Shown here piece after piece: positions 4,034 through 55,233 of a stretch of 64,000 nucleotides of DNA. This DNA comes from Candidatus Omnitrophota bacterium (GTDB taxonomy: Bacteria > Omnitrophota > Gorgyraeia > JABMRG01 > JAFGKX01), in contig JAZDPX010000006.1 of the NCBI GenBank assembly GCA_043797125.1, positions 70,921-134,920 of the forward strand, in the 5' to 3' direction. Under the pieces are notes generated by a model. That model did no database searches and was not told where the DNA came from. It was given only the letters and a program-made list of their open reading frames with translations. Made by a program: the position numbers and the translations under genes. The first letter of the stretch is position 1, and each line of letters begins with the position of its first letter.

Positions 4034-5443
4034 TTACTCCAAAAGCTTATTCTGTTCTTCATCAAGCGGAAACCACTGCTTCCATAAATCTACATAATCT
4101 TTTATTGAGTGCGCAAAATCCTGAATAGCCATTGAAAATACCACAAAATTAGCGGAATTATCTTCAAAAAGCCTTTTATCGATAGGCAAAACGTAATTGA
4201 TTATCTTCTTGGGGTCGCTTATTTCCTCATACAAATCCAACACTTTCTGGATAGGAAATTCTTTTCCAAGCATAGCTTTTTCTTCAATGCCGGATTTCAT
4301 TAATTCATCAATTTTTTTGGCTGCCCTATCGAGAATAAGAGTTGCATCTGCTTTAATAATCTCGACCCGCCCAGCTTCATCATGTGTAATTTCATGTTTA
4401 TCGACCAATTTCTTAAGCGCCCTCTCGGAAAGCCCCCTAGCCAATTCTATTAAAACAATCTTTCTGTATTTAATCGAACCATCGGGAAGCGTTTCTCTTA
4501 GCATCTTTTTCAAAGGCAGACCCGAGAAGTGGCCGCCGCCTAAAACAACCGCCGCGCCTTGCTGTTTTACCCTATTCGATGCCCGCATAATCTCTTGTTT
4601 TACTTTTTCAAAATGCGCATTCAGTCTCCTGCTATGCTCTGTATCCTGCGAAATCATTGATGGATAAATCTCTGCTGCGTAGTTGTGGGTTTCGGCAAGT
4701 ACGGGGCCCAAAACTTCAGGGCCTCTTTCACCTTTAACCCAAAGATTCAAGCCCTCTATGCCCCGCGCAAAATCATCCGGTAAAAAACGCGTTGGCTGCT
4801 CGATGGTAAAAAAACTTAATCCTAATCTATACAGAAAATATGCTCTGTCAAAATCTATGCAGCCCATTCTGTAAATTCTTTCAGCCAAAAAATAAAAAAC
4901 ATCGCTTGGCATGTATAAATCGAAAATTAAATATTCGTATAGGCCTCTTAATGTAAGATCCTCTGCAGCTCCGAGCGCTTCATCATAAGCCTCTATTGCT
5001 TGCTTAGTTTTCCCCTGTGAATGAAAATATATACTTTGCAATATGTGCATAATAGGCCACAAGTTAATTCTAATAATAGTAGTGGCTTCTTCCTGATTAA
5101 TTCCTCTTTTTAGCATTTCGTTAGCAATCATCGTATCTAAAAATTCCGGCATCTTTTCATCCTCTAAAAAGAAAAATTCATCATAGTATTCGGGGGCATA
5201 TTTTATTATCAGGGCCACCAGCTGCTTTCCATCCTTCCATTTAGATTTAAAATACGCTATATTTGCGGTTCTAATTGCAGCTTTATCACGGTTCGGATCC
5301 AGCTCAAAGCCTGTTTTTTCTCTATCTCTATCAAAATTAACTTTGCTGACAGGCCGCAATCCGTCTTCGGCAAAAGCAGGGACTGTCCCTATTTTTGATG
5401 TTGCCAATATAATGGCTATTGCTATGGCGAGGAGTTTTCCCAT
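4034..5443 (-). CDS. Exported hypothetical protein; member of the 'LRP' N-terminal motif family
   Basis: 469 aa. The N-terminus MGKLLAIAIAIILATSKIGTVPAFAEDGLRPVSK has a signal peptide followed by GLRPV. Confidence 0.5.
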   Translation of the reverse strand: MGKLLAIAIAIILATSKIGTVPAFAEDGLRPVSKVNFDRDREKTGFELDPNRDKAAIRTANIAYFKSKWKDGKQLVALIIKYAPEYYDEFFFLEDEKMPEFLDTMIANEMLKRGINQEEATTIIRINLWPIMHILQSIYFHSQGKTKQAIEAYDEALGAAEDLTLRGLYEYLIFDLYMPSDVFYFLAERIYRMGCIDFDRAYFLYRLGLSFFTIEQPTRFLPDDFARGIEGLNLWVKGERGPEVLGPVLAETHNYAAEIYPSMISQDTEHSRRLNAHFEKVKQEIMRASNRVKQQGAAVVLGGGHFSGLPLKKMLRETLPDGSIKYRKIVLIELARGLSERALKKLVDKHEITHDEAGRVEIIKADATLILDRAAKKIDELMKSGIEEKAMLGKEFPIQKVLDLYEEISDPKKIINYVLPIDKRLFEDNSANFVVFSMAIQDFAHSIKDYVDLWKQWFPLDEEQNKLLE

Positions 5444-5471: not shown

Positions 5472-6332
5472 CTATGCGCTTGCTTCTATAGCTCCTGGAA
5501 GATCCAGCAAGGTGGCAGGGCAGGTAAAGTTATCCTGGCCGCCCATAAAAAACTTTAACACTATCGGCACCTCTATATCTGTTTCATCAACAAAGCCCAT
5601 TTTTAGCAAGAATTTTTTCATTTCACGAAAATTATCGCTTCTTCCCTGAGGTGCTCTCCACCTAAAATCCTCGTCAAAAATTATATATTGAAATTCATCT
5701 ATTTCAGGTGGAAATATATTTCCCCTCTTTGCTATAATCATAAGCGCTGCTAATGCCTCTGGGCCATAACCCTTTCTTGAGAAATCGTGAACATGCGCAG
5801 TATGCGGCCGACCATGAATAGAGTATCTAAAAAATACTGTATGTGGAGTATCTATAGAATACGTTAATATGCCATGGCCAACTATTTCCTGTTTTTTATT
5901 TTCAATTGACAAAACATATGCTTTATCAAAAAATTTCTCATCGGGATTCGTACTAAAACACTGGGCATAACCTGTAGTTTGTGGGAGTTCGGGACGCGCC
6001 TCAAAACAGATTACTCTCAATCTTCCTATTTTGAATATGATACATTCATCGGTGTTTAAGCTTTCTGGCGTATAGGCTTTTGCTAATATTGAGTCGTACT
6101 CATAGCCGGCATCTACCTTATCTCTGTAAGCTATATTTATCAAAGGCGTTACCTTCTTTCGCCTTTTTACTCTTTCAACGCTAAAATCCAATTCATGTAT
6201 AGATTTTTCTAAAGATGCGGAGATAATTTTGCTAGGTGTTTTTCCTTTTGTAGCTGCCGGACGCAGCGCAAGGCTCTGCTGTGGTAAAATTAGTGTTGTT
6301 AGTATTACGAATAGAACTAGTTTCTTTAGCAT
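5472..6332 (-). CDS. Exported hypothetical protein with the LRP motif; the C-terminal half may adopt a GNAT-like fold (weak)
   Basis: 286 aa. The signal peptide ...LPQQSLALRPAATKG is followed by the motif. The C-terminal region has RKGYGPEALAAL, which fits a Q/RxxGxG/A acetyl-CoA motif. Confidence 0.45.
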   Translation of the reverse strand: MLKKLVLFVILTTLILPQQSLALRPAATKGKTPSKIISASLEKSIHELDFSVERVKRRKKVTPLINIAYRDKVDAGYEYDSILAKAYTPESLNTDECIIFKIGRLRVICFEARPELPQTTGYAQCFSTNPDEKFFDKAYVLSIENKKQEIVGHGILTYSIDTPHTVFFRYSIHGRPHTAHVHDFSRKGYGPEALAALMIIAKRGNIFPPEIDEFQYIIFDEDFRWRAPQGRSDNFREMKKFLLKMGFVDETDIEVPIVLKFFMGGQDNFTCPATLLDLPGAIEASA

Positions 6333-31274: not shown

Positions 31275-32445
31275 ATTTTAAAGCCTGAACAGGGTCTAAT
31301 CTTGATGCCTGATAAGCAGGGTATACAGAAGCCAACAGGCTGATTATCAATGCTGCCAGCGCTATTACAACAGAATCAAGAATATTAAACTTTACCGGTA
31401 TGTAATCTATATAATATATATCGGGCGGCAGCTTAAAAAATTCCTTTAATAAAAATGATACTCCAACGCCTCCCAGAAACCCGAGGCCCGTGCCTATCGA
31501 TCCGATAATAAGGCCCTGCAATGAAAATATTGCGAGAATCCCCTTCTTGGACGCGCCTATGGATTTTAATATGCCTATATCCTTGGCCTTTTCAAGCACC
31601 ATCATAACCAGCACAGCCACTATACTAAAACACGCGACAACAACTATCAACGTCAATATCACAAACATGGCAAGCTTCTCAAGCTTTATAGCGGAAAATA
31701 AATTTCTATTTCTATCAGCCCATGTGGTTATGGAAAAATTCCCCTTCAATGATTCTTGCAGCGCGCGCTTTATCTTATCACAATTTGCCGGCAACAGACA
31801 ATCAACGCCAATACCGCTTACAACTGCCTTTCCTTCAAATATGGCGGACATTTTATTTAAGCCTATATACGCGATATTGGAATCATAATCATACATGCCT
31901 GATTTAAATATCCCGGTCACCTTTATCTTTTTAGGCCCGTTTGACTCCGGAGTGACCAAAACAACTTCATCGTCAATATAAACACCCAGCAAAGACGCTA
32001 TTTCGCTTCCCATTATCAGGCCGTCTTCGATATCAGCATCAGCTGCGGAAGATACAATGTGAGGCAACAGCTTCGAAGCGTCAATCTCATTTTTGGTATC
32101 CACGCTTCTTAATACAATGCCCCTTTTCCTGTTGCGAAACTCTACTATCCCCTGGCTCCATATATATGGGAAAGAACCTTTAACGCCTTCTATGCTGTTT
32201 ATCGCCTCTGACAAACCCTGCGGATTCTGTATTCCAAACTCGCTTTCAATAAAAATATGCGGATTTGAACCTATTACCCGCGCCTGCAATTCGCTGCTAA
32301 ACCCGCTCATAACAGCTAAAGTGGCTATTAACGCGCCTACTCCGACAGCAACTCCCAGAATAGAGATAATCGTGATTATAGAAATAAATTTTTCTTTGCG
32401 TCTGGTGAACAGGTAACGCAGCGCTATAAAAAGTTCGTATCGCAT
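31267..32445 (-). CDS. lolE: LolC/LolE lipoprotein-releasing permease with FtsX-like and MacB periplasmic domains
   Basis: Four-TM topology with a large periplasmic loop; it is adjacent to lolD. Confidence 0.75.
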   Translation of the reverse strand: MRYELFIALRYLFTRRKEKFISIITIISILGVAVGVGALIATLAVMSGFSSELQARVIGSNPHIFIESEFGIQNPQGLSEAINSIEGVKGSFPYIWSQGIVEFRNRKRGIVLRSVDTKNEIDASKLLPHIVSSAADADIEDGLIMGSEIASLLGVYIDDEVVLVTPESNGPKKIKVTGIFKSGMYDYDSNIAYIGLNKMSAIFEGKAVVSGIGVDCLLPANCDKIKRALQESLKGNFSITTWADRNRNLFSAIKLEKLAMFVILTLIVVVACFSIVAVLVMMVLEKAKDIGILKSIGASKKGILAIFSLQGLIIGSIGTGLGFLGGVGVSFLLKEFFKLPPDIYYIDYIPVKFNILDSVVIALAALIISLLASVYPAYQASRLDPVQALKYE

Positions 32446-33881
32446 TATTCCGGCTTAAGCTGCGGGAATAAAATAACTTCCCTGATTGATTCCTCGCCTG
32501 TAAAAATCATTACAAGCCTGTCAATTCCGATACCCAGGCCGCCTGCAGGGGGCATGCCGTATTCTAGCGCCCTTACATAATCCTCATCCACCATGCCTTC
32601 GGGCTCAACTTCAAGCTGTTGTTGGAATCTTCGTTTTTGCTGAATAGGGTCATTTAATTCAGAATACGCATTCGCCACTTCCATGCCTCCCATGTAAAGT
32701 TCAAACCGCTCGGATATGGCGGGGTTGTCTTTTCTTGTCTTGGCAAGCGGGCAAAGTTCGCTGTAATAATCTATAACAAATGTCGGCTTGTTGCTCGCCT
32801 GGTCTTCCTTGGGCTCTAATACATCGCCGATTATATTTATAAGTTTTGTCCTGCTTATGTCGCCTTCTTCAACTTCAATGCCTTTTGCCTTTAACTTCTT
32901 TGCCCAGCTTGTGTGTTCGTCCTGCGGGGTGATTCCGAAATTTTCCTTCATCACCTGCGCGAATGAAACTCTTCTCCATGGCGGAGTAAGATCAATTGTT
33001 TTGCCTTTATATGATATTTCAAGCGTGCCTAATAATTCCTTTGCAAGGAAACTTATGAGTGTTTCAGTAAGCTGTATGATGTCATTATAATCTGCATAAG
33101 CTGTGTATGCCTCGAGCATTGTAAATTCAGGATTATGCCTGGGGGAGATACCCTCGTTTCTGAATGATTTGTTTATCTCGTAAACCTTATCCATCCCTCC
33201 GACTAAAAGCCTTTTTAAGTATAACTCCGGAGCTATTCTCATAAACAGGTCTATATCGTAAATATTATGGCGCGTCTTAAACGGCCTTCCGGCAGCTCCT
33301 CCCGGTATAGGATGAAGAATCGGCGTTTCAACTTCCAGGTATCCTCTTTCGTCAAAAAATGAGCGCATCTTATTTATAAGCTTGCTGCGCAATAAAAAAA
33401 TCTCTCTTGTCTTTTCATTTGCAATAAGGTCCAAATACCTTTGCCTGTACCTTGCCTCAAGATCTTTTAGCCCGTGCCACTTTTCCGGCAACGGGCGCAA
33501 TGCCTTCGCCAGCACTGTAAATGAAAGCGCGTTTATGGTGATCTCGCCCCTTTGAGTCTTAAAAGCCTCGCCGTTAACGCCGATTATATCGCCTATATCC
33601 ATCTCCTTAACCTGGTTAAAAAGCTCATCACCTATGATGTTTTTCCTAAAATAAAGCTGTATTTTACCGGTAAAGTCTTTTATGTCGCAGAACATGCTCC
33701 CGCCATGAGCCCTTATGGTGGTAACCCTGCCTGCTGTTGAGAACCTTTTGCCTTCTTCATACGCGTCAGCCGTGGCTTTTATAGTCAGCGGTTTGTCATA
33801 TTTATAGGCATAGGGCAGAACGCCTGCCTTCTCCATGGCCTTAATCTTATCCAGTCTTATATTTAATATATCATCTTCCAT
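32445..33881 (-). CDS. lysS: Lysyl-tRNA synthetase (class II)
   Basis: An OB-fold anticodon-binding N-terminus is followed by class II motifs (...FRNEGISPRHNPEFTMLEAY...GGLGIGIDRL). Confidence 0.9.
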   Translation of the reverse strand: MEDDILNIRLDKIKAMEKAGVLPYAYKYDKPLTIKATADAYEEGKRFSTAGRVTTIRAHGGSMFCDIKDFTGKIQLYFRKNIIGDELFNQVKEMDIGDIIGVNGEAFKTQRGEITINALSFTVLAKALRPLPEKWHGLKDLEARYRQRYLDLIANEKTREIFLLRSKLINKMRSFFDERGYLEVETPILHPIPGGAAGRPFKTRHNIYDIDLFMRIAPELYLKRLLVGGMDKVYEINKSFRNEGISPRHNPEFTMLEAYTAYADYNDIIQLTETLISFLAKELLGTLEISYKGKTIDLTPPWRRVSFAQVMKENFGITPQDEHTSWAKKLKAKGIEVEEGDISRTKLINIIGDVLEPKEDQASNKPTFVIDYYSELCPLAKTRKDNPAISERFELYMGGMEVANAYSELNDPIQQKRRFQQQLEVEPEGMVDEDYVRALEYGMPPAGGLGIGIDRLVMIFTGEESIREVILFPQLKPE

Positions 33882-33957
33882 AATATTGCACCTTTTTGGT
33901 TTAACATATAAGGCGTATTATATAGTAATACTATTACACTGTCAATTGTAATTCGTG

Positions 33958-34626
33958 TTACTCTTTTGCTATTTTTTGGGCTAAGTTATAGAGGGCGGTG
34001 TTTGCTAAAGCTAAAACTTTCTTTTTAACACGGCGGGAAAAATACTCGCGCTCTGTCTTTGTAAATTTTTCTCCTTTAAGCCTTTTCAGAAACAGCTCTT
34101 TTTGTTTCTTTGAAAACAGCTGCGATAAAGCATATTCAAGGTCAAACTCATCCTTCATTTGCGTATATTCTGTCAAACTGGCTTTTTTCTCCTTAAAGTA
34201 GCTTTCAAAAACATTAACTACTCTTACCGAAGACAGTTTCAATGTCGTCCCTTTTAAGTCATCTTTGCTCTTAAAGCTTTTAAGAAATGCCTCAAATGCC
34301 TTTTTGTTAAAAAAATCCATATTATACAACTGATCGACAAAAGACAATTTTAACCCCAGATAATCATACAGCGCAAGCGACATAACAACTAAGCCTTCAA
34401 AACTGCTTTTTTCAGGCTTTGCCTTTAAATATTTTTTGGCCGCTGTGTAATCGAAGAGCCCTTTTTCCATGCTGTTTACAAGCAACAACGGAAAACCTTC
34501 ATGCAGGCGGGAGTCTTTGCTCTTTACAACTTCCGCCAATGTCTTATTCGCATTGGTGGTTTCCCATTTTCCCAGCAAAGGATATCCTAATTCTCTCAAG
34601 TTTTTTAATAGCTCTTGCTTTTTCAT
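33958..34626 (-). CDS. Hypothetical protein; probable partner of the upstream nucleotidyltransferase in a two-gene module
   Basis: 222 aa, Lys-rich, with a 4-bp overlap with the NTase gene. No recognisable catalytic motif. Confidence 0.35.
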   Translation of the reverse strand: MKKQELLKNLRELGYPLLGKWETTNANKTLAEVVKSKDSRLHEGFPLLLVNSMEKGLFDYTAAKKYLKAKPEKSSFEGLVVMSLALYDYLGLKLSFVDQLYNMDFFNKKAFEAFLKSFKSKDDLKGTTLKLSSVRVVNVFESYFKEKKASLTEYTQMKDEFDLEYALSQLFSKKQKELFLKRLKGEKFTKTEREYFSRRVKKKVLALANTALYNLAQKIAKE

Positions 34627-35207
34627 ATATTAAACCCCTCTTTTTCTAAAATATGCAAAAAAAGCCTGAAATTCCTTTTATTCCTTTCATCAGAAACATC
34701 ATAGGAAGAGGTTTCATAAAATCTTTCTTTTAATTTCTCGATATCTATCTCTTTGCGCTTGGCTTTAAATAAAACCAAGCAATCTTCCATATCCACAGAA
34801 GTAAATCTAAAAATTTTACTTATCAGTAAATCGTAATAATTCAAAATCCCTAAATATATATACGAAAACTCTTTAAATAAAGTATTGTTGCCCTCTTCCA
34901 ACGAAGATTCAAGTAGTTCTGTTGTAAATATTTTCTTTCCAACAAATAAATCGAACTCAAAACCCTTACCCCTTCTCCACGATGTGCCGGTTTTCGGTTC
35001 ATACCCTAATCCTTCTAAGGCTTTTATCAAATATTTATACTCTGCTTCATCAGGTATAAGAAAATCAACGTCTTTCGTAGATTCCTTTAGATCCAATAAA
35101 GTCAGCGCTGTCCCGCCGCACGCTACAAGACACACCTTTCTCTTTATATGGCTATTCCATATAGAGAGTATATCCAGTAGTTGTGCCTTGTCTATTCTAT
35201 ATTCCAT
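34623..35207 (-). CDS. Nucleotidyltransferase, AbiEii/DUF1814-like
   Basis: ...VCLVACGGTALTLLDLKESTKDVDFLIPDE resembles the GGTAL ... DxD NTase motif. TACAA/TTGTA palindromes lie directly upstream. Confidence 0.45.
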   Translation of the reverse strand: MEYRIDKAQLLDILSIWNSHIKRKVCLVACGGTALTLLDLKESTKDVDFLIPDEAEYKYLIKALEGLGYEPKTGTSWRRGKGFEFDLFVGKKIFTTELLESSLEEGNNTLFKEFSYIYLGILNYYDLLISKIFRFTSVDMEDCLVLFKAKRKEIDIEKLKERFYETSSYDVSDERNKRNFRLFLHILEKEGFNI

Positions 35208-35213
35208 ATTATA

Positions 35214-35250
35214 TACAATTTATTGTATCTATTTATACAACTCCTTGTAT
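35214..35250. promoter_or_regulatory. Tandem palindromic operator-like sites (TACAATTTATTGTA; ATACAACTCCTTGTAT) upstream of the AbiEii-like NTase gene
   Basis: Two TACAA…TTGTA dyads lie within 45 bp of the start codon at 35207. Confidence 0.5.
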
Positions 35251-35319
35251 TTAAATATACAACACAAGCACCAAAAAGTCAAGGGTTTTCTATGCTCTAT
35301 GCACTATGCTCTTTGCTGA

Positions 35320-37437
35320 TTACGCTGCCTGGTCTAAGGCCTGGAGGGATTTTTTCTCTTTTATCTGCTCGAGGACATTAAGGAAAGATGCCTTTGTATC
35401 AATTTCATACTGCTTTTTGAATTTGATTTTCTGGAGCGTATCAACTAATTTTTGCGGCAGTTTATCCGCTTGTTCCTTCAAATCTATCCATTCAAGGGTT
35501 TTTAAATAATATTTATATAACTTGGAATCCTCGGACGTAATATCTCCATGGAGAACTTTCGTAATTTCAGAATCTTCAAAATCATCCGCTGTTAAATCTT
35601 TATAAATATATCCTGTGTTTCCGTCAAGCGTAATAGCCTCTCCCGCATTAAGTCTTGCGATTTCTTTTTTGTCATTATCTTGTATACTAAGGATGCCTTT
35701 TTCTGGTATCTCTCCGTATAACACAACATAAGGTATTCGTTTATTACTCTTTCTAATACCCTCTGCTACGTGGTCAAAGAGCCCCCCCCTCAAAGATATA
35801 ATTCCCGGAATATTATATTTCAAAATGCGTTCCTGGTATGGACCGATCATTGCTTCTGCTATGTGTGCGGTTACGTCTCTGCCGCTGCTTTCGGCTTCAT
35901 TAATCAAAAGCATTAAACAAATATGATCAGGTAATAAATCCATTCCCTCATTCTTTTTCGCGCCAATTCCTTCAAAAGGGTTTGGAATAACCGGGATGCA
36001 GCCTTTTAATAGTAATTCGTTTCTATCATCTCCTATGCTAACCTCAGCGGTCGCTATGCCCGGAAAAAGCGACGCGCCCCAAGCGATTGCCTTACCCTGA
36101 CTTTCTTTTTTAACAACAGGCTGCTCAAAGTAACTCTTAAGCCACTCCAAATCAGCTAATGAGATTTTTTCAAAAGCCTCTGATTCGTTCAGTATGCCTT
36201 CTTCTGCTAAATCAACTAAAGTGCGCGCTTGCGCCAATGGCGTTGTTGTATCCAAAGCATCTCGTGTCTGAACAATCCATAATTTGCCGGCAGATACAAC
36301 TATTTCAACATGCTGAATGCTCTTTTGATGTGCTTCTAATATTTTTATATAATTCAGGAGTTGTTTATAAATTTCAGGATGGCTATTTTCTAAATCCTTA
36401 TATTGCTTTTCTATTTCTCGTCTTACTCCTCTGGCCCCGTCTCCTAACTCAGCATATGGGGTAACGATAGAACTTCCGTCTACTGCAAATTCATAGTTTC
36501 CAACAATCCCCGGCTCTCCTGTAAAAGGGCTTCTGGTGCATAAGACGCCGCTTAACGACTTACCATCGTTTATATTGCCGAAAACCTGCCATTGGACATT
36601 AATTCCTCCTGTCAACTCATCGGTGTCCGTGTATATAAATGTATACTTGCCCCTGTTTTTTGTATATGAATTAGCGACCGCTGTTATTGCCTCTTTTAAT
36701 TGCTGCTTTGGATCCGAGAAATCGTGTTTAGTCATCTTTTTATATTCTTCTTCCACTTTTAATAATACCTCTTGTAATTTTTCAAAATTGATACGTTTTT
36801 TAAGCCCTTTACAAGCAGCGCAATTTAAATCACTATAATAGATTTTGTTGTTAGTTAATATTTTAAAAATTGAATCCGATTCTCTGTGGTTATCAACACA
36901 ACTTATGTAATCATAAATATATCTGATATATTCCAAATATGCCTGGTAACGGTCTCCTAATATCTGCGCATATGCATCAATATTGCTTCTATGCAGCCCT
37001 ACTTTATTTATTGTACGATATTCACCTGGTTTTGATTTTACAGCGCCCGCCCTGACTGCCAAAAGCATAAAATTATCCGAAGAACCATATTTTAATTTTT
37101 TACCTTCTTGCCGGGATGCTTTTTCCTCAATCCTTACCAGCCCACTTTCTATGTGTGGCCATAATGCTTGGTTAATTTCGTGATTTTCAATAATATCTTC
37201 TACCTCTTCATACGGTATCGTAAAACCCGCAGGCACAGGAAGCCCTAGATTAGTCATCTCCGCCAAATTAGCGCCTTTATTCCCTAAAATGTCCTTCATG
37301 TCTATTGAGCCGTCTGTATGGTCGCCGCCAAAATCATAGACGCGCTTGCCGCATTCTTCTGCTATCGGGCGCAAGGCATAACCCGGCTGAGACATCGCCA
37401 ACACAATCACTATTAATATCGTTATTATTTTTCTCAT
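35320..37437 (-). CDS. Signal-peptide-bearing PPDK/PEP-synthase-like dikinase (ATP-grasp plus phosphohistidine swivel domain) that lacks the PEP/pyruvate TIM-barrel domain; LRP motif family
   Basis: The N-terminus is MRKIITILIVIVLAMSQPGYALRPIAE. GNKGANLAEMTNLGLPVPAGFTI, AVRAGA...KPG and INVQWQVFGN match PPDK N-terminal motifs. RGGLFDHVAEG...AITLDGNTGYIY matches the PPDK phosphohistidine segment, with the His retained. The protein ends about 80 aa later. Confidence 0.6.
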   Translation of the reverse strand: MRKIITILIVIVLAMSQPGYALRPIAEECGKRVYDFGGDHTDGSIDMKDILGNKGANLAEMTNLGLPVPAGFTIPYEEVEDIIENHEINQALWPHIESGLVRIEEKASRQEGKKLKYGSSDNFMLLAVRAGAVKSKPGEYRTINKVGLHRSNIDAYAQILGDRYQAYLEYIRYIYDYISCVDNHRESDSIFKILTNNKIYYSDLNCAACKGLKKRINFEKLQEVLLKVEEEYKKMTKHDFSDPKQQLKEAITAVANSYTKNRGKYTFIYTDTDELTGGINVQWQVFGNINDGKSLSGVLCTRSPFTGEPGIVGNYEFAVDGSSIVTPYAELGDGARGVRREIEKQYKDLENSHPEIYKQLLNYIKILEAHQKSIQHVEIVVSAGKLWIVQTRDALDTTTPLAQARTLVDLAEEGILNESEAFEKISLADLEWLKSYFEQPVVKKESQGKAIAWGASLFPGIATAEVSIGDDRNELLLKGCIPVIPNPFEGIGAKKNEGMDLLPDHICLMLLINEAESSGRDVTAHIAEAMIGPYQERILKYNIPGIISLRGGLFDHVAEGIRKSNKRIPYVVLYGEIPEKGILSIQDNDKKEIARLNAGEAITLDGNTGYIYKDLTADDFEDSEITKVLHGDITSEDSKLYKYYLKTLEWIDLKEQADKLPQKLVDTLQKIKFKKQYEIDTKASFLNVLEQIKEKKSLQALDQAA

Positions 37438-37480: not shown

Positions 37481-38980
37481 CTATGCAGCAGCTCCAAATG
37501 CTAACATTATATTATATGAATTGTTCAATTCTTCAAATTTGAATCTGCCACACCCATCCTCAGTTCTAAGCGATGAAGCAATATCGTTCCATTTCAGTTT
37601 TTTCAGATTATCAATTGCGGCGCACACTTCATTTTTATTATTATCGAATTGTGCTTCCGCCCGCACCATGACTCTTATCCAATCTTCATATGCGCCTTTA
37701 TCCAACAATTCAATATAGCCTTTCAATTTGTTGGCAATTGTTTCATTCGCTTTGTATATATGCTGAATGTCGCCTGTTTTTGCATACTCTAAAAAAGCAG
37801 GTAAAAACTCCCATGTCAGTTTTTCTCTTTCTTTAATAACAGGGTTCTTTCTGTCAAGATACTTAGCAAAATTTAAACATAATATCCCAAAGCAAACGTC
37901 TCTATCCAGCTCGGCCACAGCACTGTACCTGCCTTTAATTTTTCTGTATACTATTGTATCGGCTATTGCATCAGCTAAGGCATGTGCAAAATACTCCAAC
38001 TCTCTATATTGCTCTTTCATTGAATATTCCAGGGCCTTAACATATATCTTTTTTGGTAAGGGTTTTTTAAATTGCGCAATATGACCATTTTCGTGTGCTA
38101 ATGGCTCTTCTAACAACAGCCTTGCCGCCTTTTTAACCTTTTGTGCCATCTCTTCAGGCTTCGCCGTAAGCATTTCTTGCTCTGTCATGCCTAATAATTT
38201 TTCCAGGCCTAACCTCGCCAAAAACTCGCTATAGGTGTTTCTTGACTTGTCATTTTTGTATATATAAATTTGACGCCACATAAAAAACTCGGATGCTTTT
38301 TCACGACCGACAACAATTTTTCTATCCGGCTGCATAAATGCTTGCACACTTATATTGTGGTTACTAACCGCTTCTTCTCCGATAGTGTATGCGGTATACC
38401 CGTTAATGTGTCTTTTACTTATTATCTTTCCCAATATGTACAAAGTTTTGCCGCCGTTGCCTACACTTCTGCTATACAGCCACCCTTGCGGTATAAGATA
38501 TTTATTGATTTTTTTTATATTAGTTGCTGATACTTGCATCTTTTTGCCTTTTGAGGTGACTACGGTTAGGCATTGATTAGGACTGGGGGATTTAAACATC
38601 TGCATGAGTTTGTTTACACGCAACAAATCTAATTGCGTTTCAAGATCAGATTTTTCCGCAAAAAAATATAATGGTTTAAACCGGTAATATCTAGCCAGGG
38701 GAGTGCCATTTAAATCCCTCCAGTATGGGTCGTCTAAAAATTTTATATCCTCCTGTTCCGCTAACTCATTTAACTGGTCTGCGAACAATTTGAGAGAATC
38801 GGGTAGAGTGCCATAATGACGTTTAGGATATAGGTTATTTAAAGAAGATTCAACAGAAAAAGATTCAAAGCTATCTGAATTATCAGATGCTACCGGCCGC
38901 AGACAGAAAGCTTCATTAGGCATTATTATAGTAATACATAGAATAATAAAAATTATAGTAATCGGATAGTATCGTTTCAT
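37481..38980 (-). CDS. Exported HExxH protein (putative zinc metallopeptidase); LRP motif family
   Basis: The N-terminus ...IIMPNEAFCLRPVASD carries the motif. The HExxH site is LAHENGHIAQ, with a downstream Glu (ALEYS). Confidence 0.5.
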   Translation of the reverse strand: MKRYYPITIIFIILCITIIMPNEAFCLRPVASDNSDSFESFSVESSLNNLYPKRHYGTLPDSLKLFADQLNELAEQEDIKFLDDPYWRDLNGTPLARYYRFKPLYFFAEKSDLETQLDLLRVNKLMQMFKSPSPNQCLTVVTSKGKKMQVSATNIKKINKYLIPQGWLYSRSVGNGGKTLYILGKIISKRHINGYTAYTIGEEAVSNHNISVQAFMQPDRKIVVGREKASEFFMWRQIYIYKNDKSRNTYSEFLARLGLEKLLGMTEQEMLTAKPEEMAQKVKKAARLLLEEPLAHENGHIAQFKKPLPKKIYVKALEYSMKEQYRELEYFAHALADAIADTIVYRKIKGRYSAVAELDRDVCFGILCLNFAKYLDRKNPVIKEREKLTWEFLPAFLEYAKTGDIQHIYKANETIANKLKGYIELLDKGAYEDWIRVMVRAEAQFDNNKNEVCAAIDNLKKLKWNDIASSLRTEDGCGRFKFEELNNSYNIMLAFGAAA

Positions 38981-49081: not shown

Positions 49082-49531
49082 TTATATGTTTTTACAGTAT
49101 TTGGAAAATTCTTTCTCGAGCTTACCTTTAACATAAACTACGAAAGACCTGGTTTCTTTAAGCAGCTCATTGAATTCTGCTTCACTGACAACATCTGTGT
49201 GGTCATAAAACGCATTGCCTCTTTTTTGTCTTGCGTCATCGAATAACATAATTATGCCTTTTATATAAGAATCTTCCATATTCCTCAATGCTTCCCATGT
49301 CATGTAATGATAGCTCTCTCTCGGGGCTTTATATCCCCGGCAAGCCAAAAGGCATTCTGCGGCAGCTAATGCGGCCTGATATGTTGAAATAAATCTTAAA
49401 TCCAAGGAAATGTTTGTCTGCGCCGCGTCTTTTAAGCATCTTTTTATCACATCAAAACGATCCCCTACTTCTTCCGGGTTTGTTTTATGTTTTTTTAGTT
49501 TTCCGAACCTGTATAAATCCTCTAAACTCAT
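49082..49531 (-). CDS. HEPN domain protein, partner of the MNT
   Basis: 149 aa, alpha-helical, with a candidate Rx6H motif (RGNAFYDH). It overlaps the 3' end of the MNT gene by 47 bp. Confidence 0.5.
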   Translation of the reverse strand: MSLEDLYRFGKLKKHKTNPEEVGDRFDVIKRCLKDAAQTNISLDLRFISTYQAALAAAECLLACRGYKAPRESYHYMTWEALRNMEDSYIKGIIMLFDDARQKRGNAFYDHTDVVSEAEFNELLKETRSFVVYVKGKLEKEFSKYCKNI

Positions 49532-50099
49532 CCTCGGTTCCTTTCAGAAATATTTTAGGCTCTTTTATTATGCTGCTTATAAAATGATTTTTGTCCTTCA
49601 GTTTTTTTAAAAATTCGCCTTCGGTATAAATAATGCTGTTTATTTCTCTGCCTACTGCGGATTGGTAGTTATACAAATCGGATTTTATATCTTTTAAACC
49701 TGCTTCCGCTATTATCACAATATCTATATCGCTTAAGCCTCTCTCCTGGCCTTTCGCAAACGATCCATATATAAAAGCAAATTGAATCTGCTTGTGTTTG
49801 GCCGCAATGCTTCTGAGCGCGCCTTCTATGCTGACAGTTTTTCTTATCACGCCCTTAATCTCCATATATAGCGGATAATCCAAGTTTAGTTTATAAAGCT
49901 TTATCCTCCCAAGCATTCTATGCGTAAATAGGCCTCCGGATTCAAGGGCCGCCATTTCCCTTCTAATGTTGCCTACCGAATAACCCGACAGCTTTTCAAT
50001 CTGCCTTAGATAATACTCTTTCTCGGGATCGTTAAAAAACAACTCCAGCATGGCGACTCTTGTTTTAGACTTGGTAATGTGGAATATCTCTTTTCCCAT
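49485..50099 (-). CDS. wHTH plus minimal nucleotidyltransferase (MNT)
   Basis: An N-terminal winged-helix is followed by ...FAFIYGSFAKGQERGLSDIDIVII, which is a GSx(n)...DxD Pol-beta NTase motif. A perfect palindrome GACTACAATTGTAGTC lies 14 bp upstream of the start. Confidence 0.65.
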   Translation of the reverse strand: MGKEIFHITKSKTRVAMLELFFNDPEKEYYLRQIEKLSGYSVGNIRREMAALESGGLFTHRMLGRIKLYKLNLDYPLYMEIKGVIRKTVSIEGALRSIAAKHKQIQFAFIYGSFAKGQERGLSDIDIVIIAEAGLKDIKSDLYNYQSAVGREINSIIYTEGEFLKKLKDKNHFISSIIKEPKIFLKGTEDEFRGFIQVRKTKKT

Positions 50100-50128
50100 T
50101 GTAGTCCTTTTTGACTACAATTGTAGTC
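50100..50128. promoter_or_regulatory. Perfect 16-bp palindrome GACTACAATTGTAGTC, plus an extra half-site TGTAGTCC abutting the MNT start codon
   Basis: 50113-50128 is a perfect dyad. The core TACAA/TTGTA is the same as at 35214-35250. Confidence 0.55.
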
Positions 50129-50194
50129 TATTATGAATACAACGTCAAGAAGATTTTTTTAGAAAAATGGGCAGGTGTTTGGGAAATTTGGGAC

Positions 50195-50232
50195 AACAAC
50201 GATTCGGTAAACGGTACCGGTTTTACGCTGCC
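50195..50232. repeat. Family J shared 3' element (…CGATTCGGTAAACGGTACCGGTTTTACGC[T/C]GCC) at the end of the 998-aa gene
   Basis: The 30-bp core is identical to 53421-53450. It contains the CGGTACCG palindrome and supplies the …AA* stop. Confidence 0.7.
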
Positions 50233-53219
50233 TGCGCTATTACATTTTCATTACGGCTGTTTTTGTTGAGCTTCTCCGTCTGGTTATAATATATAAGCGG
50301 ATCCTTAAGATATTTCGTATAATATTCCGGGCCAAACTTTACAGGTTCTGCCGGTTCTAAAATATCATTAATAAGCTGCTCTATAAATTGCGGATTGGGA
50401 ATCTTGTCGCCGTTTGCGGCAATAAATTTTATAATTTTTCCCATTTCACTATTTATAATGCTTCCGTGTTTTTTCATTACAAAATGCACAACCATATGAT
50501 AGTACCAATCAGCGTACATGTAGCGGATGGGCAAATAAACCGTAAACCATATATAATGAATGAGCGCGCAATACCTCGGGTATTTTCTAAGTTCAGCCGG
50601 TGCGGGAAATTTTTTCACTTCGTCAAGATTATCCCATTGCAGCTTTTTTAGGGCTTCGAGCTCAGGGACATCGAGGCTGCCGAACATTTCTTTATATTTT
50701 TCTGGTTCATATTTTTTTACATCCGATATCATATATAAAAGCTCATCTATATTCATGTCGGCAAAGTAATCAGCCTTACTTCTGTATCCGACAAGGTCCT
50801 CCAAACGGTGGGCGATTAAAAACTTTTTTATTAACTCGAGCGGCATTTGTTCGCCTTTGGAATTCCGGGGATATTTTGCCAGCCATTCTGGGGTATAAAG
50901 CATATTTTCAATAAATCTTGCCATACCCTCCTTCATTCTTGTGTCGCACGAAGCAAACGTCGGCCCCTCTCTGTAATCAGAATAGAGATGGTCAATCGCG
51001 TGTCCCGACTCATGAAACATCACCCATGCGGTTAACCGACCACCTGAGGCAAGCGTAATTATAATTCGCGTATCTTTCTCGCCAAGCGCGCAGCATACTC
51101 CGGGATGTTTAAACCTCCCTGTCTCCGTTTTTCTTGAGTCTGAGGGGTTTGTATCAAAGTATATCATTTCCGCGTCTAAACCGAGGTCTTTTAAAGTTTC
51201 CAGAAACATACCCATAAGTTTGTTCGCGGGAAGATATTCATCCACCTCTTTATAAACATCTCGCAGGGCCCAACTTGTGTTCCAGGGCGCCGGTTCAAGC
51301 TCAGCACTTTCTTTTTTAAGAAGATCGGCAATCTCTTGGTCAGCTCGCTTTATGTCATCTTTCAAATCAACTTTCATCTGCTTCATAAAACGCTTATACT
51401 CATCGAAATCAGCTCTTTGAACTCGAGCTTGTAATTGATGATAATTGGTAAGAGACGGGATATTGTACTTTTCAGCCACCAACTTGGTTGCCTCATTTTG
51501 CAAATCTTTCACTTGTTCTTTTCGCGGTTCAAATGCCTCTGCGCGCCACATCCAAAGCATATATGCCCATTCTCTCAACTCTTCTTTAGGTTCAGTTTCG
51601 AATATCTCAAGTATGTTATTATCGCCTACCGGCCTTGCTTTAAATGCCGTGGATATCACATTATATATCGCGTCTTTCTTTTTCCAATCTTTTTCCTCAT
51701 TTAATATACTAAGAACTTTTTTATCATCCGCGATTTCCTTTTTCCCCTTGTAGATATTCGATATTGATGTATACAATTTTTGCTTTTTTTTTGCATCGTT
51801 ATTGCTTGCAAGCGTCTCGCTGGCCTCATCATTATCCACGACTGTCCCGCTAGCCCGGGATAAGAGCAGATATGCTTCTCTTTTTTTGATTTTGTCTTTT
51901 GCCTTATCCAATACATTGAATGCCATAGAATTGTTTTTAATATATTTGCCTCTGAAAAATGTCGATATATACATATATGCTTTGCACTTTTTCACTTTAT
52001 CAGGGTCATCTGATAACAAAGAAAGCGTGTCTTTCTTATATATGGCCTTCCCATAGAGCTTGTATAAAAAATCATATATCTTTCCTAGTTCTTTCCTCCT
52101 GCCCTCTTTTTGCAACTCCTCCATCGCCTGGTTTGCCGCGACAGGACTATTAATTCTTTTAGTGCCCGTAAGCCAGGATATAATTTTATACATTTCCCAT
52201 TTTTTTATCTCGCTGGTTTCGGCTGTTAACAGCTTTTTAACATCGTTGTCGTCATAAATAAGCGGGCCGCCATAAATCATAGGGAAACTCATATAATCTG
52301 CATCCATTGTGTTTTTAAACGTCGATACTGGAGGGCTTTCCTCAACCTGGCTTAGCAAAAGCGAGTCGAAAAGATCCTCATACTTTCTTTTAAGATAATA
52401 TTCGCTAACCAGCTTTGAATACGCTAAGACCTTTTTAGATAAGGTTTCGTCTGTAACTATTTTTAATATTTCCTTTCCGATTTCAGCGTATTTCTTAGCG
52501 GTAGCCTGCGCCAACTCTTTATCACAAGTAAACATGGGCTGTTCTTCGTATAACCTGCTTTCACGCCAGGTTTCACCCCAGTTGGCACCGAAACGCTTTC
52601 TTTGAAGGAGCATCTCCTTTTCTTCCTCGCTCAATGTGGCTAAATATTTTTCATACTCCTGTTTACTTCCTTCAAATTCCCCGATAGCGCTCATTAACCG
52701 AAACTGAACAATACCATGCTCTATACCTTTATTGTATAATGGCAGGTAAGCCTCATCAAAAAATTTGCGCGCGGATTTTTCCAAATCTCTTTTCTTGAGT
52801 ATGCCGTTTGGAAATATATCTTTAATGCACTGGGCATATTGCAGGATATCTTGCTGTTTTTCTTTTTCCTTTATTGCTCTGCTCTTAAAAAACTTCGACA
52901 CATTGCTGTTTTTTAGTGATATTTCTTGCTTTAATGGCTCGCCCTTTTTTCTCGGCAGTTTCGACAGCGCGACAATCAACTCCTGCGCCAAGGCAATATT
53001 CTCCGCTTTTTGCTGGTCGGGCGCCTCTTGGCGCATATCATCATATTTCTTTTTCAGCATATCATATGTTATAGAATCTTTGATAAACGATATGGGCCGC
53101 AAAGCGGAAGAATCGCTGTTTGTTCTGGTGCATATTTGCGACTTTTGGAAAGCTAGCTGGTTGGATAAAAAGACAGTTGCTAATAATAATGATGATATTC
53201 TCTTTATAAGTATTTTCAT
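50223..53219 (-). CDS. Large exported HExxH protein (putative gluzincin-type metallopeptidase); LRP motif family
   Basis: 998 aa with a signal peptide followed by ...SDSSALRPISF. The HExxH site is MFHESGHAIDHLY with a downstream Glu (MKEGMARF). The C-terminal ...QAA* and the stop are contributed by the family-J repeat. Confidence 0.55.
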   Translation of the reverse strand: MKILIKRISSLLLATVFLSNQLAFQKSQICTRTNSDSSALRPISFIKDSITYDMLKKKYDDMRQEAPDQQKAENIALAQELIVALSKLPRKKGEPLKQEISLKNSNVSKFFKSRAIKEKEKQQDILQYAQCIKDIFPNGILKKRDLEKSARKFFDEAYLPLYNKGIEHGIVQFRLMSAIGEFEGSKQEYEKYLATLSEEEKEMLLQRKRFGANWGETWRESRLYEEQPMFTCDKELAQATAKKYAEIGKEILKIVTDETLSKKVLAYSKLVSEYYLKRKYEDLFDSLLLSQVEESPPVSTFKNTMDADYMSFPMIYGGPLIYDDNDVKKLLTAETSEIKKWEMYKIISWLTGTKRINSPVAANQAMEELQKEGRRKELGKIYDFLYKLYGKAIYKKDTLSLLSDDPDKVKKCKAYMYISTFFRGKYIKNNSMAFNVLDKAKDKIKKREAYLLLSRASGTVVDNDEASETLASNNDAKKKQKLYTSISNIYKGKKEIADDKKVLSILNEEKDWKKKDAIYNVISTAFKARPVGDNNILEIFETEPKEELREWAYMLWMWRAEAFEPRKEQVKDLQNEATKLVAEKYNIPSLTNYHQLQARVQRADFDEYKRFMKQMKVDLKDDIKRADQEIADLLKKESAELEPAPWNTSWALRDVYKEVDEYLPANKLMGMFLETLKDLGLDAEMIYFDTNPSDSRKTETGRFKHPGVCCALGEKDTRIIITLASGGRLTAWVMFHESGHAIDHLYSDYREGPTFASCDTRMKEGMARFIENMLYTPEWLAKYPRNSKGEQMPLELIKKFLIAHRLEDLVGYRSKADYFADMNIDELLYMISDVKKYEPEKYKEMFGSLDVPELEALKKLQWDNLDEVKKFPAPAELRKYPRYCALIHYIWFTVYLPIRYMYADWYYHMVVHFVMKKHGSIINSEMGKIIKFIAANGDKIPNPQFIEQLINDILEPAEPVKFGPEYYTKYLKDPLIYYNQTEKLNKNSRNENVIAQAA

Positions 53220-53344: not shown

Positions 53345-53452
53345 TTCGAAGTTATTCGGGACAGTGTCCTGTTTCTGTTCGGGTAGCTGTTTCCCGAACA
53401 GCTTTGGGACAGCTTCCCGAACGATTCGGTAAACGGTACCGGTTTTACGCCG
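53345..53452. repeat. Family J element, copy 2, at the end of the MFS gene, with adjacent GTTCGGGAAACAGC / GCTGTTTCCCGAAC-type inverted repeats
   Basis: AACGATTCGGTAAACGGTACCGGTTTTACGCCGCCCGC. Upstream of it is TTCGGGTAGCTGTTTCCCGAACAGCTTTGGGACAGCTTCCCGAAC. Confidence 0.65.
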
Positions 53453-54644
53453 CCCGCATTTTCCTGGAGTATATAAGCGTCGCTATTATGCAGCATACGC
53501 CGCCGAAAAACAGGGTACTGGGCGCGCCGATTTTGCCTGCTAAAAATCCCGCTAACAAGCTGCCGAACGGCGCCATGCCTATAAACGCCATGGTAAAAAG
53601 GCTCATGATCCTGCCGCGCTTATCTTCCTCCACGACAGTCTGTAAAACCGTATTGCTCGCCGCCATCTGAACCATTAACGCGAAGCCTGCGGCGAATATA
53701 ACCGCCATTGAAAACCACAAAACTTTTGATAAGGCAAACACAATAATCCCCAATCCGAAAATTCCCGAGGCTATCGCTATTATTTTATGTAAACCTGCAA
53801 CGCCTTTTCTGCGGGCAAGGTAAATGGCGCCCGTCAAAGCGCCTGCGCCGGCTGCTGCCATAAGAAAGCCGAGTGTTTCAGGCCCTTTGTGAAAAATATC
53901 CTTCACAAAGACAGGCATTAATAACTGGTAAGGCGCGCCTAATAAACTCGCCGCGCCAAGCAGAATAAGAACTGCCCTTATAGGGACGAAGTTAAAGGCG
54001 TAAACAAAGCCTTCTTTCAAATCCTGCAGTATATGCTTATCAGATGGTATTATTGCCCTGGGGGTAACATTCATCGCCAATAAAGCTATAATAGCGGCTA
54101 TATAGCTTGCTGCATTTAACAAAAAACATGGGCCCTCGCCAAATGCCGCGATTATTATGCCCGCGATTGAAGGGCCTAGAAGCCGAGCGACATTGACCAT
54201 CGAAGAATTTAACGCTATGGCATTGCCCAGGTCTTCCTTTTTCCCTATCATCTCAACGGTAAAAGCCTGCCTTATAGGCATGTCAAAGGAATTCACCACG
54301 CCAAGAATTACGCTTAGCGCTATAATATGCCATATCGCCACGATATCCGCCAGCACAAGCACTGCCAATACCAGCGCCTGGATCATCGCAAGTATCTGCG
54401 TAACTACCAGAATACGGTGCCGGTTGTATCTGTCGGCTATAACTCCCGCCAAAGGCATCAATAAAAAAGCAGGCAGCTGGCCCATAAACCCAACGATACC
54501 CAGCAGCAATGCGGAGTTCGTAAGCCTGTAAACCAGCCAGCTCATGGCAATCTGCTGCATCCATGTGCCGATTAAGGATATACCCTGGCCTATAAAAAAT
54601 AAGCGGTAGTTTCTATATCGCAATGCCCTAAATAAAAATTTCAT
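53445..54644 (-). CDS. MFS transporter (EntS/YbdA-like efflux family)
   Basis: 12-TM pattern with ...LFFIGQGISLIGTWMQ... Confidence 0.7.
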   Translation of the reverse strand: MKFLFRALRYRNYRLFFIGQGISLIGTWMQQIAMSWLVYRLTNSALLLGIVGFMGQLPAFLLMPLAGVIADRYNRHRILVVTQILAMIQALVLAVLVLADIVAIWHIIALSVILGVVNSFDMPIRQAFTVEMIGKKEDLGNAIALNSSMVNVARLLGPSIAGIIIAAFGEGPCFLLNAASYIAAIIALLAMNVTPRAIIPSDKHILQDLKEGFVYAFNFVPIRAVLILLGAASLLGAPYQLLMPVFVKDIFHKGPETLGFLMAAAGAGALTGAIYLARRKGVAGLHKIIAIASGIFGLGIIVFALSKVLWFSMAVIFAAGFALMVQMAASNTVLQTVVEEDKRGRIMSLFTMAFIGMAPFGSLLAGFLAGKIGAPSTLFFGGVCCIIATLIYSRKMRAA

Positions 54645-54796: not shown

Positions 54797-55233
54797 TGGT
54801 GGAGGCGAGGGGAATTGAACCCCTGTCCTTGAGCGTTCAGCAATAGGCGCTACATGCTTGTCCTGTGCTTTGAATTCGCCCCGATAATCTTGCATAGGCA
54901 CAATCTCATCGGGACTAGCTTTTAAAAATCTCATCCTGCTCTCTAAAAGCTAAAAAAGCGGGACCAGCCTATTAATGACGCCAGACCCGGGCTAAATAGG
55001 CAAACCCGGCTGACGGTAGCCGCGTATTAGGCGGCTAGCGGCATCATGGAAACCATTCCTGTGTTAACAGGAACAACTTCCATGACTTTAGCGCGAATTG
55101 TATCCGCACTTATCATGTAGTCGGCTTTTGCTCCTCGCTTTCGCTCGGAGTCCCTTACGGGACAAGGCCAACCGACCAACCTTGGCATGCTCCTAGTTGC
55201 CCAATCGCATCAAGTCGAACCCTGTTCGCCCCC
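54797..55233 (-). ncRNA. ssrA: tmRNA (SsrA)
   Basis: The minus-strand 5' end GGGGGCGAACAGGGTTCGACTTGATGCG pairs with the 3' end ...GGACAGGGGTTCAATTCCCCTCGCCTCCACCA to give a tRNA-like acceptor/T-arm with CCA. It lies immediately downstream of smpB. A candidate tag ORF ends ...MMPLAA-UAA at about 55026. Confidence 0.8.

Follow-up and report, generated by a model that had tools for sequence, protein, structure and literature searches.

Do two nucleotidyltransferase (NTase) gene pairs that carry the same TACAA/TTGTA pentamer in their promoters obey one regulator, or does each pair regulate itself? The question was raised by a stretch of 64,000 nucleotides from a Candidatus Omnitrophota bacterium (GenBank assembly GCA_043797125.1, contig JAZDPX010000006.1, positions 70,921 to 134,920; the whole stretch is called the window here). 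All four genes are on the minus strand. Module 1 starts with a 204-aa protein (49485..50099) having a winged helix-turn-helix (wHTH) and a minimal nucleotidyltransferase (MNT) domain, followed by a 149-aa HEPN-family protein (49082..49531), whose gene overlaps the MNT stop by 47 nt. Module 2 starts with a 194-aa NTase of the DUF6036 family (34623..35207), followed by a 222-aa partner (33958..34626), whose start overlaps the NTase stop (ATGA).

An initial annotation, made from the letters of the window, had named these four open reading frames (ORFs), and all were found where it had placed them. It had also taken the common pentamer as a sign of one regulator, or of cross-regulation. The half-sites of the two modules differ in spacing and flanking bases, which makes a shared regulator unlikely. 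With a probability of about 70%, we read the pairs as two independent, self-repressing two-gene NTase modules of the toxin-antitoxin (TA) or abortive-defence kind, a reading drawn from sequence comparison. The module 1 family was sampled by 80 related loci from a one-genome-per-species collection, with operator counts over 78. The module 2 family was sampled by 83 loci fished with the 222-aa partner, giving 49 distinct upstream regions and 56 distinct loci for the state of the NTase. Neighbourhoods were compared in 163 related loci across both families.

The winged-helix MNT and HEPN pair

The wHTH-MNT/HEPN identity of module 1, first suggested by eye, was borne out by Pfam, PADLOC and PDB profile matches. 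The 204-aa protein matched Polbeta (PF18765, E 1.6e-11) and NTP_transf_2 (PF01909) in Pfam, both above the cutoff, and PDC-M05A in PADLOC (PDLC04368, E 5.7e-51; residues 9–193 against profile positions 10–196 of 201). A match to the NCBIfam model MntA_antitoxin was below the cutoff, and one to an ArsR/SmtB-type HTH was faint (E 0.0087). Against the PDB, the family profile aligned with the MNT/MntA chains 8xeh and 5yep at residues 93–139 and with the winged-helix regulators 9t6t and 3r0a at residues 6–86. The catalytic GS...DxD motif (G112, S113, D124 and D126) was invariant in 32 sequences. Judged by these profiles, the protein is an N-terminal winged helix (about residues 6–86) fused to a minimal NTase, and we predict that it is both antitoxin and autorepressor of module 1.

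The predicted toxin is the HEPN protein. It matched HEPN_SAV_6107 (PF18726, 28.5 bits with a cutoff of 27.2), a generic HEPN model below the cutoff, and PDC-M05B in PADLOC (PDLC04374, E 3.4e-28; residues 1–144 against profile positions 1–144 of 146). Almost every related locus had a partner gene, for ~145–160 aa, that overlapped the end of the MNT gene. Residues conserved in the HEPN family were Y51, G66, H75, R101, K103, R104 and Y109. The window protein has an Rx4-6H motif (RGNAFYDH, R104-GNAFYD-H111), of which H111 was not conserved across the family.

Both proteins matched M05A and M05B over their full length, in adjoining genes of the same order and with the same published domains. By these matches module 1 is a member of PDC-M05, already catalogued and nothing new in kind; structurally we saw no difference, and module 1 adds an Omnitrophota member. 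PDC-M05 has been described as a pair of NTase and HEPN protein with the architecture of a TA system, M05A combining an ArsR-like HTH with a KNTase-like NTase. Its antiviral role is mostly unconfirmed; one representative, unrelated to module 1 of the window, was reported to shield E. coli from at least one phage.

Module 1 also resembles the type VII HEPN-MNT systems (Shewanella SO_3165/SO_3166, MntA/HepT). In both, the MNT gene is upstream of, co-oriented with and overlapping the HEPN gene; the GS...DxD motif and the match of the family profile to MntA structures are further likenesses. In Shewanella the MNT antitoxin acts as a repressor of its own promoter, where palindromes are found at −10 and −35. 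In contrast to SO_3165, which is without a predicted DNA-binding domain, the MNT of module 1 carries a fused N-terminal winged helix. Its HEPN protein is SAV_6107-like, with conserved R101/K103/R104...Y109 and H75 replacing the conserved Rx4-6H.

The module 1 promoter was found at 50120..50148 (minus strand), with TTGACG (50148..50143), a 17-nt spacer and TACAAT (50125..50120), together 10 of 12 consensus matches. A perfect 16-bp palindrome, GACTACAATTGTAGTC (50113..50128), had been pointed out here earlier, and it is indeed perfect and single-copy in the window. It had been placed over the MNT start at 50099, but it covers the −10 hexamer TACAAT instead, at the junction of two 22-bp units. 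The ATG is overlapped by the proximal half-site GACTACAAT (minus strand, 50098..50106), which is preceded by a Shine-Dalgarno-like AAGGA. A distal, degenerate half-site TTGTATTC (minus strand, 50135..50142) comes directly after the −35 hexamer and abuts it.

The same layout recurred in related loci. The core TACAATTGTA (50116–50125, over the −10) was upstream of the MNT gene in 42/78 of them. It is created where two units of the form TTGTAnnn-N6-nnnTACAA abut. TTGTA-N12-TACAA was found in 33/78 loci, across many phyla, and 22 bp was the dominant spacing. The recurrent upstream pattern was TTGACA, then TTGTAnnn-N6-nnnTACAA, then TTGTAnnn-N6(AAAAGG)-nnnTACAA-ATG. The nnnTACAA half-site was 0–4 nt ahead of the ATG in most loci, and TTGTAnnn directly after TTGACA is the counterpart of the distal half-site in the window.

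The three bases flanking the core co-varied with the MNT recognition helix: GNIRRE went with xAC/GTC, PVSMIRKE with GGT/ATA and PVAYIRRE with GGA/ACC (the slash marks the core). This partition of operator types by recognition helix had a Fisher p of 2e-9. Subfamilies with the helix FDPVRRE or DPGNLSRE had entirely different palindromes, TGTCATATGACA or a long TTGTATAATTTACATC...GATGTAAATTATACAA (L089, L101, L104, L120, L132, L140 and L146; L153, L158 and L163). Such subfamilies form a natural specificity series for the winged helix. The co-variation of flanks and helix points to the MNT winged helix as the reader of the module 1 operator, and we regard this as strong comparative evidence. This operator grammar was not found in the literature searched, where the core sequence appeared only in unrelated contexts.

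The core also fits the TACAnnTGTA box of the CopY, BlaI and MecI operators, in which the 10-bp core alone is insufficient for specificity. One MNT subfamily has a core, TTACAATTGTAA, that is also found in the CopR sites of L. lactis, GTTTACAATTGTAAAC, where again a pair of operators spans the −35 and −10 regions. Nevertheless, CopY, BlaI and MecI belong to separate protein families, with an effector logic of metal or proteolysis, and the MNT had no match to a Penicillinase_R-type domain in Pfam or NCBIfam. Winged-helix repressors use TACA/TGTA half-sites again and again.

In the proposed mechanism the MNT winged helix would bind four half-sites (TTGTAnnn/nnnTACAA), which form two 22-bp units placed end to end. 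With the edge of the −35, the −10 (TACAAT), the ribosome-binding site and the start codon covered in this way, the operon would be shut off. The MNT domain would neutralise the HEPN toxin, by analogy with the type VII HEPN-MNT systems, in which MNT-catalysed adenylylation counters HEPN toxicity.

The DUF6036 NTase and its partner

The 194-aa protein of module 2 had been labelled AbiEii-like. It does score as an NTase, but of the DUF6036 family (PF19502; E 3.3e-11, 43.7 bits with a cutoff of 23.6, residues 22–181). NCBI names an identical protein "DUF6036 family nucleotidyltransferase", and PF19502 was precomputed on all 120 listed homologues. The AbiEii family PF08843 gave no match at E <= 0.1, and the PADLOC AbiEii match was marginal (E 5.6e-4, residues 9–65 only). 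Thus, of the profile families first proposed for the two modules, PF01909 and a HEPN family matched module 1, but PF08843 did not match module 2. The motif ACGGTALTL...STKDxD was invariant in the NTase family. About 1000 clusters of this NTase are known, from Omnitrophota, Acidobacteriota, Aminicenantes and others; DUF6036 was not mentioned by family name in the full-text literature searched.

The description of the 222-aa partner as uncharacterised stands. No match was found in Pfam, NCBIfam, PADLOC or PHROGs, including all 32 alignment members (E <= 10) and ten divergent representatives, and a PDB profile search with the family gave none either. The AF2 model is all-helical, with 14 helices and a pLDDT of 77. 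Many polar and basic residues of the C-terminus are invariant. The idea of a helix-turn-helix similar to sigma-70 region 4, which inspection by eye had raised for this C-terminus, was dropped, the model having four plain helices there and no match. Homologues of 219–225 aa fall into over 700 clusters at 90% identity, with 477 representatives when the cutoff is 50%. The two genes travel together: 71/83 partner-fished loci had similarity to the NTase directly upstream, and for 8/8 NTase-fished proteins that were looked up the next gene downstream was the partner.

Downstream of module 2, just after the stop of the 222-aa gene, there is a perfect consensus promoter, TTGACA-17-TATAAT (12/12; 33917–33945, minus strand), presumably for lysS (32445–33881). 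Module 2 is thus wedged between the presumed lysS promoter and two of the genes for exported proteins considered further below. Other DUF6036 loci adjoin Fic, NTP_transf_8, RES and HTH_17 genes.

Module 2 has its own promoter at 35254..35282 (minus strand), with TTGACT (35282..35277), a 17-nt spacer and TATATT (35259..35254), again with 10/12 consensus matches. The −10 overlaps the first half-site of an operator array at 35213..35262, which on the minus strand reads TTGTAT-N6-ATACAA-N4-TTGTAT-N6-ATACAA-N4-TTGTAT. On the plus strand ATACAA starts at 35213, 35235 and 35257 and TTGTAT at 35223 and 35245, with a period of exactly 22 bp. Two palindromes noted here at first, ATACAATTTATTGTAT (35213–35228) and ATACAACTCCTTGTAT (35235–35250, both plus strand), are present, but they are not isolated, having a fifth half-site ATACAA beside them at 35257–35262. 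In the window, exact TTGTAT-N6-ATACAA was found only at 35223–35240 and 35245–35262; allowing one mismatch gave three matches, against 0.19 expected by chance.

The array was strongly conserved. TTGTA-N8-TACA[A/G] was found in 46/49 distinct upstream regions and TACAA-N4/5-TTGTA in 44/49, with the 22-bp spacing in 76 cases. The same array was present in 10/10 loci fished independently with the NTase. The half-site columns were invariant in the family, and the spacers were fixed in length and free in sequence. The promoter arrangement TTGACA-17-TATATT recurred in related loci, and the last half-site overlapped the ATG in most homologues. The array accompanies the module in many phyla, and its binder must therefore be one of the module's own products. 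The DUF6036 NTase has no leftover region able to form a DNA-binding domain, and for this reason the 222-aa partner is the most likely binder of the five alternating TTGTAT/ATACAA half-sites in the promoter and 5' leader, and the probable autorepressor.

Which of the two proteins would be the toxin is hinted at by gene loss. The NTase was frameshifted, internally deleted (sometimes down to the first ~20 codons) or gone in 16/56 distinct loci. In all 16 an intact partner of 220–225 aa stays, and in 15 of the 16 so do the promoter and operator array. Such decay was recurrent and independent (L001–L003, L007, L013, L016, L017, L022, L024, L027, L028, L034, L035, L040, L050, L062, L065 and L074). 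The persistence of partner and operator where the NTase decayed suggests that the NTase is the toxin and the partner the repressor and antitoxin. We favour this polarity, in which the 222-aa protein would combine autorepressor and antitoxin, an AbiE-like logic with reversed gene order.

The opposite polarity would make the DUF6036 NTase an antitoxin that nucleotidylates a toxic 222-aa protein of novel fold, as in type VII. The gene order, NTase and then an overlapping partner, is the same as in MNT-HEPN, and Tyr, Ser and Thr residues that are invariant in the partner could serve as modification sites. However, an unneutralised toxin would be lethal in the loci where the NTase is destroyed and the partner kept intact with its promoter and operator. 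The partner also has neither an Rx4-6H motif nor a HEPN signal, and autorepression, its most likely function beside an NTase without a DNA-binding domain, is the usual role of an antitoxin. We consider the opposite polarity unlikely.

With the 222-aa protein as predicted antitoxin, module 2 resembles AbiE (AbiEi/AbiEii) in being a two-gene NTase module whose NTase core weakly matches AbiEii in PADLOC. The AbiE antitoxin is described as a two-domain protein that represses its operon via inverted repeats in the promoter. In module 2 a conserved inverted-repeat array overlaps the promoter, and autorepression through it is predicted. The differences are the NTase family (DUF6036, PF19502, and not DUF1814/PF08843), the reversed gene order (partner downstream rather than upstream), a partner without AbiEi or winged-helix signal and without a fold match, and an operator of five half-sites with a 22-bp period.

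The repeats might instead act in the transcript: the 5' leader of module 2 could fold as a nested hairpin, pairing site 2 with 5 and 3 with 4, hide the start codon and control translation. The leader (35190–35250) folds at −9.5 kcal/mol, compared with −3.5 for shuffled sequences (z = −4.05), and the position of the last half-site over the ATG in most homologues would suit such a switch. On the other hand, none of the 12 pairs had a compensatory change in 37 sequences, the paired fraction was no better than in shuffles (381/500), and pair 38–65 was mismatched in eleven sequences. The stems consist mostly of A-U pairs, with a single G-C pair in each. Site 1 is invariant despite overlapping the −10, at or before the likely transcript start, and what is conserved is the sequence itself, not complementarity. 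DNA-sequence recognition would explain the pattern better than RNA structure, and we find an RNA switch rather improbable.

Common half-sites and exported neighbours

The palindromes could have been A+T-rich motifs common throughout the genome. Within the window the bare pentamer is indeed common: TACAA/TTGTA occurs 151 times in the 64 kb, no more often than the ~186 copies expected from composition. However, each palindrome type was found in the window only at its own promoter, and the two module promoters form its densest 80-bp clusters of the pentamer (5 and 4 copies, with at most 2 elsewhere). In module 1 the TACAAT also doubles as the −10 hexamer. Of the shared operator first proposed, the pentamer and the 22-bp period hold for both arrays, which are operator-like, but the idea of one regulator is not supported.

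Such a regulator, the wHTH-MNT or a common repressor, would read the TACAA half-sites of both promoters and couple the modules. Apart from pentamer and period, the co-occurrence of both module kinds in another Omnitrophota genome speaks for it. In the metagenome-assembled genome GCA_018817565.1 and a JGI contig (L169 and L170, positions 1–513 and 1501–2750), a Polbeta/NTP_transf_2 NTase (187 aa) and a 153-aa gene lie ~1 kb upstream of a DUF6036/222-aa pair. Against this, the MNT family spaces its inverted pentamers N12/N0 and the DUF6036 family N8/N4, and the geometry of the other family was seen in 0/78 MNT and 0/49 DUF6036 loci. The base adjoining TACAA is C in the MNT operator of the window and A in module 2. 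Each array is conserved whether or not a genome has the other module, and the flanks of the MNT operator follow the recognition helix of the MNT, which also speaks against a common regulator. The candidate binders showed no similarity: hhalign gave the 222-aa family a probability of 2.4% of being related to the wHTH-MNT family, and it found no relationship of DUF6036 with MNT beyond the DxD strand. Moreover, TACAnnTGTA is used by many unrelated repressors. Cross-regulation between the modules thus looks unlikely from the sequences, and a single regulator of both very unlikely. As far as the loci compared indicate, the shared pentamer goes with each family wherever it occurs and is nothing peculiar to this genome.

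A coupling of the modules to the adjoining exported proteins, by which they would stabilise an island or regulate those genes, has hardly any probability left. The initial annotation had observed that each pair comes immediately after a gene for an exported LRP-motif protein, and had suggested a functional link or a common mobile origin. The position is correct: the gene next upstream of each pair encodes an N-terminal signal followed by [A/C]LRP. Five such proteins, with a hydrophobic N-terminal signal followed by [A/C/G]LRP[A/I/V], are encoded in the window (4034–5443, 5472–6332, 35320–37437, 37481–38980 and 50223–53219, all on the minus strand). They are mutually unrelated by BLASTP, so that the motif itself can be taken as genuine. 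The LRP and module regions have a slightly lower G + C content (0.33–0.40, compared with 0.41–0.47), and a transfer-messenger RNA (tmRNA) gene lies 1.6 kb from the 998-aa LRP gene. These points would fit an island. In the related loci, though, a motif scan found signal plus LRP in 0/762 ORFs of at least 120 aa, and tblastn found no homologue of three of the LRP proteins by either module. Each module has its own promoter, and with five LRP proteins in 64 kb a chance adjacency is not rare.

Signs of mobility were lacking as well. Around the modules no integrase, transposase or att-like repeat was seen; a search for direct and inverted repeats gave no att-like pair, the only notable repeat being a 38-nt terminator-like element. 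Neither module NTase was found on the viral contigs scanned. The window neighbours are housekeeping genes (lysS, an amidase, an MFS transporter and an AsmA-like protein). The adjacency of modules and LRP genes is best read as a coincidence within slightly AT-richer, variable regions.

Several other features of the window touch the LRP proteins. The combination of signal and LRP motif may be a lineage-specific tag for sorting or processing. One of the five proteins (705 aa) has the N-terminal, ATP-grasp-like domain of pyruvate phosphate dikinase, which is odd for an exported protein. Three of the five end in ..AA. The 38-nt element is a direct repeat, 95% identical, found after the 998-aa gene (50198–50235) and after the MFS transporter gene (53420–53457). 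It spans the last codons (..AA and stop) and a hairpin, CGGTACCGTTTACCG, and looks like a shared terminator or a repetitive extragenic palindromic (REP)-like element. The tRNA and Rfam scans of the window detected the tmRNA only (54797–55233, minus strand; Rfam 153.5 bits). Its tag, according to ARAGORN, is unusually long, with 26 residues, and ends in PLAA; several window proteins end in ..AA, like the tag.

What the two modules mean

Several points weigh against two self-repressing modules as described. The 222-aa protein has no recognisable DNA-binding fold, the best Foldseek E values being ~2–7 for the full length and for the C-terminal 77 residues. Its role as binder is inferred by elimination and from the retention of the operator in loci without the NTase. 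The asymmetry of NTase loss was not significant (16/56 compared with 0/8, one-sided p = 0.085) and is biased by the way the loci were fished. The exact 22-bp period and the pentamer are common to two unrelated families. For module 1, the non-conserved histidine of the HEPN Rx4-6H motif indicates that the chemistry of the toxin may differ from that of HepT.

By sequence, module 2 appears to be an undescribed TA-like NTase pair, with a partner that matches neither a known domain nor a known fold. Going further, we suggest tentatively that DUF6036 and the 222-aa protein form a widespread, undescribed TA or defence family, whose all-helical partner would be a repressor-antitoxin with a new type of sequence-specific DNA binding, and that pentamer and period came to be shared by convergence or ancient exchange. 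If so, the shared operator grammar could allow limited cross-talk where both module kinds reside together. A common TACA/TGTA-type half-site is, as a caution, no evidence of a common regulator.

PDC-M05 is a very common, largely uncharacterised candidate defence system, and the module 1 data give it a testable operator model and a map from recognition helix to operator flanks, which could be used to predict PDC-M05 regulation. Module 2 is the more useful lead, being an abundant and tightly conserved NTase operon with a strongly conserved operator array, for which the natural pattern of NTase loss predicts which gene is the toxin.

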